DNA from: an uncultured Nitrosopumilales archaeon | GTDB taxonomy: Archaea > Thermoproteota > Nitrososphaeria > Nitrososphaerales > CAYNJB01 | Assembly (NCBI GenBank): GCA_964397515.1 | Contig: CAYNJB010000001.1 | Span: 1 to 29,380, forward strand | Length of the DNA stretch: 29,380 bases | Direction: 5' to 3' | In this document: one piece after another, positions 5,071-29,380 of the stretch | How the letters are laid out: each line of letters starts with the position of its first letter | How positions within the stretch are numbered: the stretch's first letter is position 1 | Translations under genes and position numbers: made by a program | The notes under the pieces: model-generated | Databases searched by the model: none | What the model saw: only the letters and a program-made list of their open reading frames with translations | Told to the model about the DNA's origin: nothing

Positions 5071-7284
5071 TTAACCATAGAAGCTTTGTTTGGATTTTTT
5101 AGGAATATGTACATTTAGATTCTGAGAAATCGAAGAATACCACGATTCAACTTCTTTTGTTATTGAAGGCCTTACATTATCTAAAGCATATTTGAAATCA
5201 GACAAGTCTACTTTATTTGAGAGGTTAGTTGTTCTAATAGCATTTATCCCTGCTGTTCTAACAAGAGATTGAAGATCCGCACCGGTATATCCTTCAGTAT
5301 CTCGAGCAATAATATTAAGAGAGACGTTATTGGCTAAACTCATTTTTGATGTGATTAGTTTTAGAATGTCATACCTGCCTTTTTCGTCAGGCGGTGGTAC
5401 AAAAATTAACAGATCAAGTCTACCTGGTCGCAAGATCGATATATCTAATAGATCAGGCCTATTTGTGGCGGCTAAAACGAAGAGACCTGGAATGTTCATA
5501 GATGCGTCTGTCTCGGTAAGTAATTGGCTTAATACTCTCTCAGATGTAGATGAATCAGTCCCATCAACTGATCTTGAACGAACTATAGAATCAACTTCAT
5601 CTAAGAAGATAATACAAGGAGTTGAGGATTTTGCTTTCCGAAATATGTCTCTTATCGCTTTCTCTGATTCTCCAACCCATTTTGATAAGACTTCGGGTCC
5701 CCTTATTGTTATGAAGTTTGCTCCGCTTTCGTGAGCTAAAGCTTGAGCGAGCAATGTTTTTCCACATCCTGACGGTCCGTACATAAGGACTCCTGAGGCT
5801 GGCTTGATTCCGATTTTCTTGAATCGTTCAGGATGATTGATTGACCAAATAACGTTTTCTTTAAGACTCTGCTTGATTTTTTCAAGACCGCCTACTTGAT
5901 CCCAGGTTATTCTAGGGGTATCAACGTAGAATTCCCTTAACGCGCTTTGGACTATTTCCCTCATAGCTTCTTTAAAGTCATCAAAATTTACTTCAATCTT
6001 TTCAAGTAGTTCAGATGGGATTTTTTCCGCATAATCTATATCAGGGATGAATCGCCTCATAGCTTTAAGTGCCGCCTCACGGGTTAACGCTTGAATATCG
6101 GCGCCAGAATATCCATGAAGAATACCTGAGAGAGAGACTAAATCAACTTCTTTTGATAGGGGCATTCCCCTTGTATAGATAGTTAATATCTCAAGTCGTG
6201 ATGAGGGATTAGGTACACCAATATCAACTTCACGATCAAATCGACCAGGCCTTCTTAAAGCAGAGTCAACAGAGTCTAGTCTATTTGTGGCACCAATGAC
6301 AATAACCGATCTTCGTTCTGAAATTCCATCCATTAAGGCAAGAAGTTGAGCTACTACTCTTTTTTCAACATCTCCAACTACATCGTCTCTTTTTGGAGCT
6401 ATGGAGTCAATCTCATCAATAAAGATAATACTTGGGGTGTTTCCCTTAGCTTCCTTGAATATTTCTCTCAAACGAGCCTCCGTTTCACCATAATATTTAT
6501 TCATGATCTCTGGACCGCTAACTGAGAAGAAGCTTGCTTCAGATTCATTTGCCAACGCTCGGGCTATTAGAGTTTTACCGCAACCAGGGGGACCGTGAAG
6601 AAGAACACCTGACGGGGGTTCAATCCCCAAACGTTGAAAAATTTCTGGATGTCTAAGAGGAAGTTCAATAATTTCTCTCAGCCTCTTAATTTCATAATTT
6701 AAGCCGCCTACATCATCGTATGTTACCCTTTGGCCGGTAGATGTAGATTCAATTTCTGTAGATATAGTTATTTTTGTATTTTGATCAATCTTAACTATCC
6801 CTTTTGGATTAACCTTAGCAACTTTAAAGTCAATAGGGTTACCAAGAATCATAACTAAGAGGTCTTGTCCTTCCAAGATAGGAGTGCCTTTTAGTCTATT
6901 TCTAACAAATTGACAGAATTCGTCATCTGTAGTTAATTTGTCATCTAATAATTGAAGAGCAACAGATTTAGCAATCTTCGTTCCCACTTTTTTAACAGTT
7001 ATAGAGTCATTCAGAGCTACGCCGGCGTTTTTCCTTGTCTGGCCATCAATTTTAATAATGTTTTGTGATTTATCATTACTATTACCATTATCATTATCAT
7101 TATCGTTTGGCCAAACTATCGCGACCGCAGATTGTCGTCCTATGAGCTCAACTATAGTTCCCTCGTTTATTCCAAGAAGTATTATAGAATAGGGGTCTAA
7201 TCTAGCTCTAGATTTGCCAATATCTCTCTGATTTGCTTCTGTTACTCGAAGCTGTATTGATCTTATTTTTGGATCGCGAGTCAA
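5071..7284 (-). CDS. cdc48: CDC48/VCP (VAT) double-AAA ATPase
   Basis: N-domain ([14 protein letters not shown]), Walker A GPPGCGKT and GPSGCGKT, Walker B IFIDEID and IFLDEVD, RPGRFDR / RPGRLD Arg fingers; C-terminus ...FYG is an HbYX-type motif; TTG start. Confidence 0.97.
7069..7104. repeat. Degenerate hexanucleotide microsatellite inside cdc48 (ATTATC x3 plus ATTACC, ATTACT, TTTATC)
   Basis: Direct reading; on the minus strand it encodes [12 protein letters not shown]. Confidence 0.75.
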
Positions 7285-8291: not shown

Positions 8292-8866
8292 TTATTCATT
8301 AATCCAAATAGTTTTTTCCTTGAAAGATATCCGGTAACCTTTTGGAGGAGATATATCAGGGTATCCAATATATAAAAAACCAAAAAGATGTTCTTTATCT
8401 TTTAGTCCGAAAAATTTGTTCACTTTTTTTTTCTCGACACAGCTTTCCCGGTACGTAAAATACTGCCAAGACCTAATGAGTGTGCAACAAGCATCATATT
8501 TTGAGATGAAATTGAAACCGCAGCATATTCTTCTAATTCTTCAATTACAGGATTATTGGATGGAGTGATCGCAATTGCTATAATTACGGGTGCTCTTAGA
8601 GGTTTATTTCTCTCCGCATTCAACTTTAATTTAATTTTAGTCATATCCTGATTTTGCATTTCATCTTCAAGGGCATCGGCCATAGCATCACCTAATCGTT
8701 TAGAGCCTTTCGCCGTTAAAACGAAGAAACGCCAAGGTTCTGTTCGATGATGATTAGGCGCCCACGTTCCGGCCTCGAGGATTTTTTCGATCATTTCATT
8801 TGATGGGGTTATGTTCTTAAATTTACTAATACTTCGCCTAGATTGTATAACACTAAAAACATCCAT
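8292..8866 (-). pseudogene. Nitroreductase family protein (YdjA-like) interrupted by a frameshift at an A9 run: pseudogene, recoded gene or sequence error
   Basis: Frame 0 (8866-8420): SRRSI, APNHHRTEPWRF, RAPVII, QNMMLVAHSLGLGSILRTG, then a stop. The -1 frame (8423-8292) continues VNKFFGLKDKEHLFGFLYIGYPDISPPKGYRISFKEKTIWINE*, the expected family C-terminus. Confidence 0.85.
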
Positions 8867-23213: not shown

Positions 23214-24722
23214 TTATTTGCCTTTTTTAATAAATAATTTGTTGATTCCGTTGAGAAGGGCTTCAACACTTGAGACTACAATATCTTCTCCAGTACTACG
23301 TGCTGAAGCAAAATTTCCTTTATTGTCTCCGACTTTAACAAGAACTTCAGACAAAGCTTCTGATCCCCCTGTTAAGGCTTCAAGTCGGTATTCTGTAAGA
23401 GAAATTTTAGCTATTTCTTCAGTAATTTTATGTATTGCTTTTACAGCTGCATCTACTGGTCCGACACCTGTTTCGGAAGCTACATAAATTTGGCCTTCAA
23501 GATCTATCTTTACTGACGCAGTAGGAACAACATTTGTTCCGGTCATCACTGAGAAATCAATTAATTTCACCTTTTTTTTACTTTCAACAGGGTTTTCAAC
23601 TATAGATCTAGATAATGCTTCAATATCTGAATCAGTTAAGGATCTTCCTTTATCACCCATTTCCTTAATTTGATTCATGATAATTTTAAGTTGTTCATCT
23701 GTGGGGGAGAAGCCAAGTTCATTAAGTTGAGATTTTATTCCATGAGTACCAGCATGTTTTCCTGCTTGAATCCACCTTCTTCGTCCTACAAGGTCTGGGT
23801 CGATAGGTTCGTAAGTAGTAGGCATGGATAATACACCATGGGTGTGAATGCCTGATTCATGACCGAAAGCATTGTCGCCTACAATAGCTTTGTTTGGTTG
23901 AACTACGACACCCGTCAGTTTTGATACGAGCCTGCTGGTTTCATAGATAAGCTTTGTATTTATTTTTGTTTTCTTTGAATAAAAACAATGAAGAGCCATA
24001 ACGACTTCTTCTAATGATGCGTTCCCTGCTCTTTCACCTATACCATTGACAGTAGCATGAATTTGTGATGCTCCAGCTTCAACAGCCGCAAGAGAATTTG
24101 CAACTGCTAGACCAAAATCATTATGGCAGTGAATAGCTATAGGTGTTTTAATAACAGATTTTATCTCTTTTACTAAGGAACTCATTTTTGATGGAGTTGC
24201 TACACCAACTGTGTCAGGAATGTTTATTCGATCAGCGCCTGCATTTACTACTTCCTTAAGAAATTTTTTTAGAAAATGTGGATCTGAACGAGTAGCGTCT
24301 TCAGCTGAAAATTCTACAGTTACTCCATGTTTTTTAGCATATTCAACTCCAGTAATTGCGTTCTTTAGAGCTTTAGCTTTAGTGATTTTTAGCTTATGTT
24401 TAAGATGTATATCAGATGTTGCTATAAATAAGTGAATACTTTCTACATCGCACGCTAGGGCTACATCTATATCTTTTTTGTCAACTCTAGCTAAGGCACA
24501 TATTTCGGCGTTCAAACCTGCTTTAGCAATAGATTTGACAGATTTGCGTTCTCCGCGTGAAGTTATTGGAAAACCAGCTTCTATAGCGTCTACACCAAGT
24601 GTATCAAGTCGTCTTGCAATCTCTAATTTCTCATCTACGGTTAGAGAGACTCCGGGTGTCTGTTCTCCATCACGGAGAGTGGTATCGAATATTCGAATAT
24701 GTTGATTTGTTTGTTTGGGTAT
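23214..24722 (-). CDS. leuA: 2-isopropylmalate synthase; start extended beyond the ORF-track call, no canonical start codon
   Basis: Frame is open upstream of the 24515 TTG and encodes IRIFDTTLRDGEQTPG...IEAGFP, then HCHND, GERAGNA, HESGIH and a regulatory domain (GVGPVDA, GGSEAL). The nearest upstream in-frame stop is at 24768-24770. ATA at 24722 is used as a provisional start (502 aa). Citramalate/homocitrate paralog status is not excluded. Confidence 0.88.
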   Translation of the reverse strand: MPKQTNQHIRIFDTTLRDGEQTPGVSLTVDEKLEIARRLDTLGVDAIEAGFPITSRGERKSVKSIAKAGLNAEICALARVDKKDIDVALACDVESIHLFIATSDIHLKHKLKITKAKALKNAITGVEYAKKHGVTVEFSAEDATRSDPHFLKKFLKEVVNAGADRINIPDTVGVATPSKMSSLVKEIKSVIKTPIAIHCHNDFGLAVANSLAAVEAGASQIHATVNGIGERAGNASLEEVVMALHCFYSKKTKINTKLIYETSRLVSKLTGVVVQPNKAIVGDNAFGHESGIHTHGVLSMPTTYEPIDPDLVGRRRWIQAGKHAGTHGIKSQLNELGFSPTDEQLKIIMNQIKEMGDKGRSLTDSDIEALSRSIVENPVESKKKVKLIDFSVMTGTNVVPTASVKIDLEGQIYVASETGVGPVDAAVKAIHKITEEIAKISLTEYRLEALTGGSEALSEVLVKVGDNKGNFASARSTGEDIVVSSVEALLNGINKLFIKKGK

Positions 24723-24727
24723 CGTAT

Positions 24728-25210
24728 TTACCCCCGTTGTAGAGCTGTAATGCCTGTTCGAGATATGTCACGTATGCCAAAACTTGATACTAGTTTAATG
24801 AAAGAATCAATTTTAGTTGGATCACCCGTAATTTCAACTGTTATGGTTTCATTTGATACGTCAACGATTCTACACCTATATATTTGGGAGAAATTCAGCA
24901 CATCTACTCTAGTTTTTTGATCTAAAACATTTAACTTGATCAAAGCTAGTTCTCTTACTACAGATGTTTGTTGTTCAAGTAAAGTTATTTTTACAACATC
25001 TATAAGTTTACCAAGTTGCTTTATTAGTTGTTCAACTGTTAATTCATCACCGTTTACAACTATGGTCATTTTGGCAAGTCCGGGTTTCTCTGTGCGCCCC
25101 ACGGTTATACTTTCTATATTGAAGCCTCTTCGTCTAAACATGTTTGAGGCTCTAAAAAGTACTCCCGGTTTGTTTTCAACGATAGTAGAAAGTATGTAAA
25201 GATCGCCCAT
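24728..25210 (-). CDS. ilvH: Acetolactate synthase small regulatory subunit (two ACT domains)
   Basis: VENKPGVL...FRRRGFNIESITVG, EQLIKQLGKLIDV, RELALIK, EITGD, RTGITALQRG. Confidence 0.95.
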   Translation of the reverse strand: MGDLYILSTIVENKPGVLFRASNMFRRRGFNIESITVGRTEKPGLAKMTIVVNGDELTVEQLIKQLGKLIDVVKITLLEQQTSVVRELALIKLNVLDQKTRVDVLNFSQIYRCRIVDVSNETITVEITGDPTKIDSFIKLVSSFGIRDISRTGITALQRG

Positions 25211-25214
25211 GATT

Positions 25215-26912
25215 TTATCTTATATCCTGTGAACTATATAATATGTCTTTTAGTCCTTTTCCTGGAGGTACAAACGGATATACATCTTCGTCAGGGGAAA
25301 CAGGGATGTCGATTACTGTAGGTACTTCGTTTCGTAACCCAGAACGTAAAGCTTTTTCTACTTCTTTAATAGATTGAGCTCTTATTCCTTCAGCTCCATA
25401 AGATTCAGCTAACTTTACGAAGTCAGGAGTATTTTTAAATTTAATAGCTGAATATCTTTTATCATAAAACAATCTTTGCCATTGTTCAACCAAGCCTAGA
25501 GATCTATTGTTTAATATAGCTACAATGATTGGTATTTTTTCTTCGACGCATACTGCCAACGAATTTTCGGTCATGCAGAAACTTCCATCTCCGGCAAGAT
25601 CAACTACAGGAACATCTGGTTTTGCAACTTTAGCTCCAATAGCAGCTGGAAAACCGAAACCCATTGTACCTAAACCTGTAGAGGTAATCCATGTTCGTGG
25701 TTTAATAACTTTATAATGCAATTCTGCAAACATCTGATGTTTTCCAACTTCAGTTGCAAGTATGCCTTCAGGAGGTAAAATTTCGCGGATTTTTTTAATA
25801 ATTTTAATAGTTTTTAGATTGGCCCAGTCCAAATCTTTGTTGTTCTTTAGTTCGTCTCTTACTTCATTAATTCTTTTTAACCACAGTGAGCCCCTTTTTC
25901 TTTTGATTTTAAGTCTTAAAGATTCATATATTTGAGTTAATGCAATTTTGGCGTCTCCAACTATAGGTAATTGTACCTGTTTATTTTTTCCGATCTCTGA
26001 AGGATCAATATCTATATGAATTATTTTTGCGTCTGGACAAAATTTGTTAAATAGTCCAGTAGTTCTATCGGAAAATCTTACTCCGACAGCTAAAACACAA
26101 TCAGCTTCACAAATTAATTTATTTCCCTCTGGAGTACCATGCATTCCAATTGGACCTAAAGATAATGGATGATTCTCTGGAAAACTTCCTTTTCCGATTA
26201 AAGTAGTTACTACTGGAACTAAAAGAAGTTCAACAATGCTCTGAAGTGACTCTGACGCATTACATAAAATGACTCCGCCTCCAGACAAAATAATTGGTTT
26301 TTCAGCGTTTAAGAGAAGAGCAGCTGCCCGTTCAATTTGTAGATGATGAGGCTCAATTGCAGGTTTGTATCCTCTAATGACAACTTTTTCTGGAAATTTA
26401 ATATTTGTTTTCTCTTGTTGAACATCTTTTGGTATATCGATTATAACTGGACCAGGTCTGCCAGTGGAAGCTATATGAAATGCTTTCTTTAAATCATAAG
26501 GAATTTCAGCTGAATTCATTGGTTGGAAAGTATATTTTGTTATCGCAGTTGTTATCCCGATAATATCAGTTTCTTGGAATGAGTCCTTGCCAATAAGAGA
26601 TTTTGCAACTTGGCCTGTTATAGCAATAATTGGAGACGAGTCAGCGTAAGCAGTAGCTATACCTGTAACAAGATTTGTTGCTCCTGGACCAGAAGTTGCA
26701 AAGCAAACTCCAACTTTCCCACTTGCTCGAGCATAACCATCGGCCATATGAGCTGCAGATTGCTCATGTCTACAAAGTATATGACGTATATCACTATTAT
26801 AGAGTTCATCATATATAGGAAGAGTTGCACCTCCGGGTATACCAAAGATATTTGATACACCTTCACGCTTTAATGATTTCATTAAAGCTTTAGCGCCAAT
26901 CATTTCAACCAA
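25215..26912 (-). CDS. ilvB: Acetolactate synthase large catalytic subunit
   Basis: FGIPGGA, RHEQ, TSGPGATN, GQV, FQE, GRPGPV, GLGTMGFG, GDGSF...NNRSLGLV TPP motif; TTG at 26912 or ATG at 26903. Confidence 0.96.
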   Translation of the reverse strand: MVEMIGAKALMKSLKREGVSNIFGIPGGATLPIYDELYNSDIRHILCRHEQSAAHMADGYARASGKVGVCFATSGPGATNLVTGIATAYADSSPIIAITGQVAKSLIGKDSFQETDIIGITTAITKYTFQPMNSAEIPYDLKKAFHIASTGRPGPVIIDIPKDVQQEKTNIKFPEKVVIRGYKPAIEPHHLQIERAAALLLNAEKPIILSGGGVILCNASESLQSIVELLLVPVVTTLIGKGSFPENHPLSLGPIGMHGTPEGNKLICEADCVLAVGVRFSDRTTGLFNKFCPDAKIIHIDIDPSEIGKNKQVQLPIVGDAKIALTQIYESLRLKIKRKRGSLWLKRINEVRDELKNNKDLDWANLKTIKIIKKIREILPPEGILATEVGKHQMFAELHYKVIKPRTWITSTGLGTMGFGFPAAIGAKVAKPDVPVVDLAGDGSFCMTENSLAVCVEEKIPIIVAILNNRSLGLVEQWQRLFYDKRYSAIKFKNTPDFVKLAESYGAEGIRAQSIKEVEKALRSGLRNEVPTVIDIPVSPDEDVYPFVPPGKGLKDILYSSQDIR

Positions 26913-28946: not shown

Positions 28947-28985
28947 TAAACACTTAAACTGGAACTTCAAATAGGTGAAAAGCGA

Positions 28986-29380
28986 ATCGATTCAACCATT
29001 GAAGTTCTTGACACAACATTAAGAGATGGATCTCAAAGTTACGGTGTATCATTTTCTCTTCAAGATAAATTAAGTATAGTCAAAAGACTTGACCAAACTG
29101 GAATTCAATATATAGAAGGAGGTTGGCCTGGATCAAATCCTAAAGATGTAAGTTTCTTTAAAAAAGCTAAGAAACTTAAACTAGACAATTCTGAAATAGT
29201 TGCATTTTCTAGTACAAAACATAAAAAAAACTCAGTAACTAAAGACTTGGCACTGAATTCTATAATAGAAGCAGAAGTAGAAACTGCTGTGATTTTTGGA
29301 AAAACCTGGAAACTTCATATTGATAAGGTCTTAAACTTAAGCATTAAAGATAATATCAGGATAATAGAAGAATCTATTTC
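28986..29380 (+). CDS. cimA: Citramalate synthase (LeuA-related, TIGR00977-like), 3'-truncated by the window edge, no canonical start codon
   Basis: IEVLDTTLRDGSQ, YIEGGWPGSNPKD, AFSST, IFGKTW; the GGWPGSNPKD signature is typical of this citramalate synthase subfamily. In-frame stop at 28947-28949; ATC at 28986 is used as a provisional start. Confidence 0.8.
   Translation, partial: MDSTIEVLDTTLRDGSQSYGVSFSLQDKLSIVKRLDQTGIQYIEGGWPGSNPKDVSFFKKAKKLKLDNSEIVAFSSTKHKKNSVTKDLALNSIIEAEVETAVIFGKTWKLHIDKVLNLSIKDNIRIIEESI

Follow-up and report, generated by a model that had tools for sequence, protein, structure and literature searches.

The window analysed here is the 29,380-bp contig CAYNJB010000001.1 of an uncultured Nitrosopumilales archaeon (GenBank assembly GCA_964397515.1), taken over its full length; its G+C content is about 34%, and it is present in many marine and seawater metagenome runs. 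On its minus strand lies leuA, the gene for 2-isopropylmalate synthase, and no ATG, GTG or TTG precedes the catalytic motif of the encoded enzyme. We propose that translation of leuA most likely starts at a near-cognate ATA codon (24722-24720, minus strand), behind a strong Shine-Dalgarno match written in the last codons of the preceding gene, ilvH. A canonical start codon is likewise missing from its paralogue cimA, which belongs to the same gene cluster.

The gene would be the last of an ilvB-ilvH-leuA operon. The first, ilvB (26912-25215, minus strand), ends 4 nucleotides (nt) before ilvH (24728-25210, minus strand; ATG at 25210, TAA at 24730-24728), which encodes the acetolactate synthase small subunit of 160 amino acids (aa; NCBIfam NF008864/TIGR00119, E 3e-56). 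Counted from the ATA, leuA has 502 codons (23214-24722, minus strand) and begins 5 nt past the ilvH stop, and all three genes are co-directional; leuB is convergent to them, and ilvBH, ilvC, ilvD and leuB are all intact beside leuA. By family profile and domain content the product is 2-isopropylmalate synthase (LeuA): it scores 698 bits against NCBIfam NF002085 (cut-off 517), and the HMGL-like (PF00682), post-HMGL (PF22617) and LeuA allosteric/dimerisation (PF08502) domains are all matched. The PF00682 match begins at the Ile of the sequence IRIFD and spans profile positions 2-260 of 260 (E 1e-93), and the catalytic motif of this DRE-TIM domain, DTTLRDGEQ, lies at 24660-24686 (minus strand), as placed by PF00682, NF002085 and an alignment with PDB 3RMJ. 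In a protein database search the closest LeuA proteins, from assembled genomes of Nitrososphaeria/Nitrososphaerales, are only 72% identical.

Read along the minus strand, the junction of ilvH and leuA is CAA CGG GGG TAA (24730-28) ATACG ATA (24722-20) CCC AAA CAA ACA AAT CAA CAT ATT (24698-96), after which the leuA frame continues with CGA ATA TTC GAT ACC ACT CTC CGT GAT GGA GAA CAG. The nearest upstream stop in this frame is a TGA inside ilvH (24768-24770, minus strand), and a script scan of 24767-24690 on the minus strand, i.e. from that TGA to IRIFDTTLRDGEQ, showed all frames to be free of ATG, GTG and TTG, in agreement with an initial annotation of the window made from its sequence. The first canonical in-frame start is a TTG at 24513-24515 (minus strand), 84 codons past the TGA; the HMGL-like domain starts 61 codons and DTTLRDGEQ 57 codons before it. 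Its 433-aa product has no DTTLRDGEQ, and the same annotation was thus right in holding that the open-reading-frame start at 24515 deletes the essential DRE motif. This TTG is used by all full-length public gene calls: in the public LeuA cluster (99-100% identical, n=9), all eight full-length entries have 433 aa, the NCBI call on this contig being one of them, and the ninth is a 110-aa fragment. Since all have this length, no gene finder met a usable start in any assembly.

A start-free stretch is not in itself the unusual point. By composition alone, 23 start-free codons are expected with P of about 0.33, which is unremarkable, and 78 nt free of starts in all frames with P of about 0.03. What is unusual is an intact, conserved and selected gene that has no canonical start. 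Among about 77 genes in about 62 kb of the organism (the window together with contigs L050, L052 and L053, which were reached by walking public contigs), only leuA and its paralogue cimA are of this kind.

Other assemblies of the junction were compared with the window. The contig is metagenome-assembled, and homopolymer-length differences between assemblies exist elsewhere in the genome, both of which would fit a sequencing or assembly error, or a private mutation, that conceals a true ATG at 24722 or 24725. The junction is, however, without any difference at 24696-24751 in Logan contigs of eight runs (X3, X5, X6, X7, X10, X12, X13 and X19), which come from different samples and studies and were counted as independent metagenomes, and it is the same in four contigs from JGI/ENA (L046-L049; 98.3-98.8% identical, with 1.2-1.7% of positions differing). 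An ATG at the start in reads or close relatives, the observation that had been named as fatal to near-cognate initiation, is absent from at least eight metagenomes and the four further contigs. The nearest variants on either side, CGA>AGA at 24695 in leuA and GGC>GGT at 24752 in ilvH, are both synonymous. Agreement between independent assemblies shows that the junction is neither a sequencing error nor a private mutation, and we regard this explanation as refuted. Two other runs, X1 and X2, share an identical 11,728-bp contig at equal depth and may be one data set or the source sample.

The gene is likewise intact: none of five DNA versions of leuA carries a frameshift or stop, and a comparison of its two haplotypes shows 10 synonymous and 7 non-synonymous differences, corresponding to a ratio of non-synonymous to synonymous polymorphism (pN/pS) of 0.22 (binomial p=0.0019). 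leuA is under purifying selection. Parts of leuA are covered by metatranscriptome contigs from three runs, and part of ilvH by one such contig, with DNA carry-over possible. The sequence is fixed in the population, and the gene is intact and probably transcribed.

These data bear on the view that leuA is not fully translated, being either a recent pseudogene that has lost its start or a source of only the 433-aa product from TTG 24515. The public full-length calls all have that length, two biosynthetic paralogues without canonical starts could mean pathway loss in a streamlined marine genome, and three of the seven non-synonymous differences in leuA fall within the 69 N-terminal codons. Against this stand the absence of a frameshift or stop in any strain, the synonymous excess in cimA (p=0.0048) as in leuA, and the perfect conservation of the catalytic N-terminus of LeuA, to which may be added that the remaining pathway (ilvBH, ilvC, ilvD, leuB) is intact next to leuA and that a 433-aa product would have no metal- and substrate-binding motif. 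Strong Shine-Dalgarno matches stand at the right spacing before near-cognate codons in both leuA and cimA, for which the joint chance is about 2e-4, and the cimA ATC, shared by lineages with CimA proteins 59-63% identical, is therefore old and functional. We therefore consider it quite improbable that full-length LeuA is not made.

Between the ilvH stop and DTTLRDGEQ, four in-frame codons are one mismatch away from a canonical start: ACG 24725, ATA 24722, ATT 24698 and ATA 24692. The last of these was dropped as a candidate, as only MF would precede the motif. The others differ in their position relative to GGGGGU (24730-24735, minus strand), a 6-nt Shine-Dalgarno match formed by the last two ilvH codons, CGG GGG, and the T of TAA; all six of its bases can pair contiguously with the conserved archaeal 16S 3' end, the third G making a G-U pair. 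The Shine-Dalgarno consensus of this conserved end is GGAGGUGA, and spacing was measured from the fifth G. The aligned spacing is 8 nt to the ATA (24720-24722) and 5 nt to the ACG (24723-24725), and the ATT (24696-24698) is without a match; the sequence GGGGGTAA ends 5 nt before the ATA. Runs of at least 6 nt at spacings of 5-12 precede only four of the organism's 63 canonical gene starts examined (spacings 7, 8, 12 and 12) and occur at 0.75% of random positions. In strength GGGGGU ranks with the top 6% of gene starts in the genome, where strong Shine-Dalgarno genes use spacings of 7-12.

The codons that make up the G run are rare ones. CGG accounts for 3.3% of Arg codons and GGG for 10.8% of Gly codons, and CGGGGG occurs only once among 45 Arg-Gly dicodons, at the C-terminus of ilvH. 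Relatives write the same C-terminal Arg-Gly of ilvH as AGA GGC or AGA GGT, which indicates that the Shine-Dalgarno match is a derived feature, placed in rare synonymous ilvH codons.

The length of the predicted N-terminus also favours the ATA. Among 33 homologues, 31 have 4-9 residues ahead of IRIFD and two have 19 and 22, and in none is there no residue; a start at ATA would place the eight residues MPKQTNQH there. The ATA is invariant in all assemblies. It is followed by a G-free, C/A-rich tract, CCCAAACAAACAAATCAACAT (24699-24719, minus strand), that encodes PKQTNQH, is unpaired in both predicted folds and may act as an unstructured, open landing site. The initial annotation had proposed near-cognate initiation in this linker, with the ATA behind a Shine-Dalgarno-like sequence overlapping the ilvH stop, and had pointed to a (CAAA)3 repeat; the repeat is present (24717-24706), and the Shine-Dalgarno match, its spacing of 8, the N-terminal length and the rare-codon make-up together favour the ATA at 24722 as the best candidate.

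In the mechanism we propose, AUA 24722-24720 would be read by initiator tRNA with insertion of Met, to give MPKQTNQH-IRIFDTTLRDGEQ..., a protein of 502 aa. The weakness of AUA as a start would be compensated by the strong GGGGGU 8 nt upstream, in the rare synonymous codons of ilvH, and ribosomes that end ilvH would reinitiate at the AUA 5 nt further on (termination-reinitiation). All three elements, the codon used, the insertion of Met and the coupling to ilvH, we infer from the sequence.

The two other codons were weighed on the same evidence. Initiation at ACG 24725-24723 would use the same Shine-Dalgarno match and give MIPKQTNQH-IRIFD..., 503 aa. This codon is in frame and near-cognate, one canonical gene of the genome has a spacing of 4, shorter than the 5 nt here, and the resulting nine-residue extension is within the range of the homologues. 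The spacing of 5 is nevertheless shorter than the 7-12 nt of the other strong Shine-Dalgarno genes here, the ACG lies only 2 nt past the ilvH stop, and in Escherichia coli ACG belongs to a weaker class of start codons, with 0.1-1% of the activity of AUG as compared with 1-2% for AUA (bioRxiv 10.1101/063800). cimA of this organism and of its relatives, moreover, uses a codon of the AUH type (AUA, AUC or AUU), unlike ACG. A start at ACG thus seems unlikely, if not greatly so.

Initiation at ATT 24698-24696, the codon for the conserved Ile of IRIFD, would give MRIFDTTLRDGEQ... without an N-terminal extension. In bacteria no non-canonical start is better documented than ATT, which is used by infC and pcnB (bioRxiv 10.1101/063800); RefSeq uses it for homologues in Methanosarcinales, including a 488-aa Methanosalsum model that begins MQFLDTT; and local RNA structure at the ATT is weak (-2.4 kcal/mol). 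On the other side, there is no Shine-Dalgarno match within 25 nt of the ATT, every one of the 33 homologues has at least 4 residues ahead of the Ile of IRIFD, and the codon lies 29 nt past the ilvH stop, beyond the approximately 20 nt at which reinitiation was lost in Haloferax volcanii (PMC10666635). A start here would also leave the strong Shine-Dalgarno match in rare codons, 8 nt before the ATA, unexplained, and we regard it as improbable.

A different way to dispense with a start codon would be an IlvH-LeuA fusion of about 665 aa, produced if tRNA-Gly slipped by -1 on the G5 run (CGG GGG UAA) with the stop codon waiting in the A site. The leuA frame is -1 relative to that of ilvH and is open across the junction back to 24767, GGGGG permits perfect re-pairing of a GGG-reading tRNA, and the rare codons in the G run suggest selection. 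The initial annotation had raised this option, giving its product as ...QRG-VNTIPKQ..., a reading that we confirm, and had ranked it below near-cognate initiation, a ranking with which we concur. There is no X XXY YYZ heptamer: the site is A CGG GGG UAA, in which only the G5 could slip, and only with a single tRNA. No significant structure is found downstream (z -1.65 and -0.18 versus shuffled sequences), where the tract is C/A-rich and unpaired. In the orthologous junctions of the relatives compared at the DNA level (L001, L002 and L057), leuA is kept apart from ilvH and has a start of its own (TTG or ATG), and there is no G run; none of the best 120 LeuA matches has a fusion length or ACT domains. 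The rare codons make equal sense as a correctly spaced Shine-Dalgarno match for the ATA, and cimA shows the same start anomaly without an upstream gene to fuse with. We consider a fusion very improbable.

Returning to initiation at the ATA, its distance from the ilvH stop suggests that leuA initiation is probably coupled to ilvH termination; in one relative (L002) the leuA ATG similarly lies 4 nt past the ilvH stop. Reinitiation at a near-cognate codon has, to our knowledge, not been shown in archaea. In H. volcanii, reinitiation works at +1 and +5 nt, shows about 60% loss at 13 nt and is abolished at 22 nt (PMC10666635), which places the ATA, at +5 nt, within the range of that system and the ATT, at +29 nt, out of it. 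The ilvH-leuA pair shares with described cases of archaeal termination-reinitiation (Huber et al. 2019, PMC6728339; 2023, PMC10666635) co-directional genes, a very short gap (+5 nt here) and a Shine-Dalgarno motif inside the 3' end of the upstream gene. It differs in that the described cases have canonical starts, mostly with overlaps of -4 or -1 nt, and in that its coupling is inferred. An internal promoter giving a leaderless leuA mRNA was also considered and rejected, no convincing TATA element being seen by eye at the right distance, although no promoter scan was run; leaderless mRNAs, according to a review of archaeal translation, start with AUG, GUG or UUG (PMC7531240). The ilvB-ilvH junction (25205-25220) offers a further observation: the ilvH ATG lies 4 nt past the ilvB stop without any Shine-Dalgarno match, unlike the strong match before leuA, and ilvH translation probably depends on reinitiation.

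Several points weigh against initiation at the ATA. AUA initiates at only 1-2% of the AUG level in E. coli (bioRxiv 10.1101/063800), and a review of archaeal translation lists AUG, GUG and UUG as the only starts (PMC7531240). The adjacent ACG shares GGGGGU, at a spacing of 5, and by sequence is inseparable from the ATA. None of the metatranscriptome contigs on leuA and ilvH spans the junction, and the protein databases hold no LeuA relative between 72% and 99% identity that could show conservation of the ATA. A small GGGUA/UACCC hairpin over the stop and start, considered as a coupling device and rejected, has no statistical support (z -1.65 and -0.18 versus shuffled sequences) and is gone in a longer fold.

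The start codons of leuA in the relatives are TTG (L001 and L057, behind GGAGG-like sites) and ATG (L002). Since these differ from ATA, the leuA ATA is, as far as the compared sequences go, specific to this species-level lineage.

The second gene without a canonical start, cimA, has a start region on the plus strand (28973-28988) that consists of AGGTGA (28973-78), 7 nt, and ATC (28986-88). Two strains (L046 and L048) have a C>T change that gives AAG TGA ATC, i.e. an in-frame TGA directly before the ATC, so that the cimA start there cannot be upstream of the ATC. The gene nevertheless remains intact and under selection (6 synonymous against 3 non-synonymous changes, p=0.0048), and to judge from these sequences the organism must use a near-cognate start for cimA. 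Relatives with CimA proteins 59-63% identical and a G+C content of 46-48% (loci L054-L057) keep GAGGT, 7 nt and ATC GAT TC. Two of these three relative lineages have no in-frame canonical start ahead of the cimA motif; in the third (L057), an in-frame GTG lies two codons ahead of the Asp, and gene callers choose it. The ATC region was located at 28947-29000 in the window, in L048 and L050 (at 5812 in L050), and at 1231-1300 in L054, 1294-1350 in L056 and 7935-8000 in L057. Public cimA calls are either truncated (441, 461 or 478 aa) or begun at the GTG two codons before the Asp. On this comparative evidence an AUH start for cimA is an old and conserved state of the clade, which makes AUA at leuA credible.

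The two genes share several features: both encode DRE-TIM synthase paralogues, both lie in the same gene cluster with an AUH codon behind a 6-nt Shine-Dalgarno match, and public calls of both are truncated (441 aa for cimA of this organism). They differ in that cimA opens its transcript, which makes coupling impossible, and in that its ATC is old, being kept in L054-L057, whereas the leuA ATA is seen in this species only.

CimA entries in the databases were also inspected. Among the best 120 CimA matches, which are from Nitrososphaerota, about one-quarter begin with MLDTT, VLDTT, MDTT, LDTT, MRDG or LRDG or are truncated past the motif, and others bear unconserved extensions that end in ...GG(R/K)IDY/IDS; the Ile of this ID(Y/S) motif aligns with Met1 of the CimA entries that begin MDY or MDK. 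This suggests an ATH start (ATA, ATC or ATT) behind GGNGG for cimA across much of Nitrososphaerota, for which the DNA basis is the three relative lineages (L054-L057).

Near-cognate starts at AUA, AUC, AUU and CUG are covered for bacteria by translation table 11. In E. coli, AUA, AUC and AUU initiate at 1-2% of the AUG level, and infC and pcnB start with AUU (bioRxiv 10.1101/063800). leuA resembles these two genes in being intact, in the proposed reading of an AUH codon by initiator tRNA, in having a Shine-Dalgarno site ahead of that codon and in being missed by gene finders. It is unlike them in belonging to an archaeon, with aIF1/aIF1A/aIF2 and not IF3, in having AUA and not AUU, and in a start that is proposed from sequence. 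The infC AUU serves IF3 autoregulation; no such logic is known for the leuA AUA.

A search of the literature for an archaeal AUA start or for the leuA start codon found nothing specific. At the annotation level, a near-cognate start in the LeuA/CimA family is already known: an in-frame ATT is the first codon of RefSeq models for (R)-citramalate synthase in Methanococcoides and Methanosalsum (for example WP_177165264.1, of 494 aa, WP_083754935.1 and WP_259133297.1), and older GenBank records of these enzymes begin at a TTG directly before the Asp (485 aa, MDTTLRDG). These enzymes are of the same family as LeuA (about 50% identical), and their genes likewise have no plausible in-frame ATG, GTG or TTG before DTTLRDGEQ. 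The genes differ from leuA in belonging to another phylum, in having ATT as start, in being promoter-proximal and not coupled to ilvH, and in having no strong Shine-Dalgarno match at normal spacing; their ATT is, moreover, an annotation choice and not an experimental result.

Other archaeal members of the family show a variety of arrangements. LeuA/CimA-family genes of Methanosarcinales (ANME-2 anaerobic methanotrophic archaea, Methanococcoides and Methanosalsum) also have no plausible canonical start. In ANME-2, Methanimicrococcus and Bathyarchaeia there is an ATG at Shine-Dalgarno distance that is one nt out of the enzyme frame (xxA TGG) and opens an upstream open reading frame of 8-10 codons (MARRDRFICQ*, MGNRFLRP* or MGWYFIVKL*). 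The loci from Methanosarcinales and Bathyarchaeia are L008, L010, L011, L016 and L026 (approximately 1460-1520), L017/L018 (approximately 1485-1518), L019 (approximately 1479-1512), L020/L022, and L007, L009, L013-L015 and L024.

Some further observations concern the genome at large. The 63 genes called in the approximately 62 kb start with ATG (46), TTG (13) or GTG (4), and fewer than 20% of them have a convincing Shine-Dalgarno match, as judged from the listing. A third gene, at 5751-6143 of L052, was examined as a possible near-cognate-start gene and rejected; it is instead part of a gene for a winged-helix regulator (5751-6192, minus strand, ATG at 6192; weak LexA_DNA_bind match) that is interrupted because an A8 run is 1 nt too short, and a gap of 700 nt is left uncalled there. 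A nitroreductase gene has an A9 run in the window (8424-8432), A8 in L053 (at about 3477) and A7 in L051 (16029-16601), and only the A7 version gives an intact protein, of 190 aa; this frameshift is a homopolymer-length difference between assemblies, due to strain variation or assembly error. An Rfam search of the window and seven related loci gave no match, and no tRNA genes were found in the additional loci.

The truncated LeuA and CimA calls have a practical consequence. As all eight full-length LeuA calls are without the catalytic motif, metabolic reconstructions could miss LeuA, and a widespread marine archaeon could be scored as having no functional LeuA or CimA. Taken together, leuA and cimA indicate that the starts of this enzyme family are systematically misplaced by gene finders that accept only ATG, GTG and TTG. 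The leuA junction is a well-controlled addition to the small body of evidence for AUH starts in archaea, in that the proposed start is fixed, the gene is selected and a compensating Shine-Dalgarno match is present, and its weak start codon, paired with a Shine-Dalgarno site that is both strong and derived, would exemplify compensatory evolution in a translation-initiation region.

That weak or non-canonical starts of LeuA and CimA recur across archaea is to us the most interesting thread. One speculative explanation, which we put forward as a possibility on the unlikely side, is that the weak starts are themselves selected, LeuA and CimA having repeatedly come under near-cognate or weak starts as a translational control point for entry into the pathway. 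The examples that could be cited for it are ATA and ATC here, ATC in related Nitrososphaeria and TTG in close relatives, together with ATT, or an out-of-frame ATG with a short upstream open reading frame, in Methanosarcinales and Bathyarchaeia. If this were true, the making of LeuA and CimA would hinge on a strong Shine-Dalgarno site, on coupling with the gene upstream or on how faithfully start codons are selected (aIF1), and such control of the acetyl-CoA-condensing entry enzymes of branched-chain amino-acid synthesis would be of a kind undescribed in archaea.

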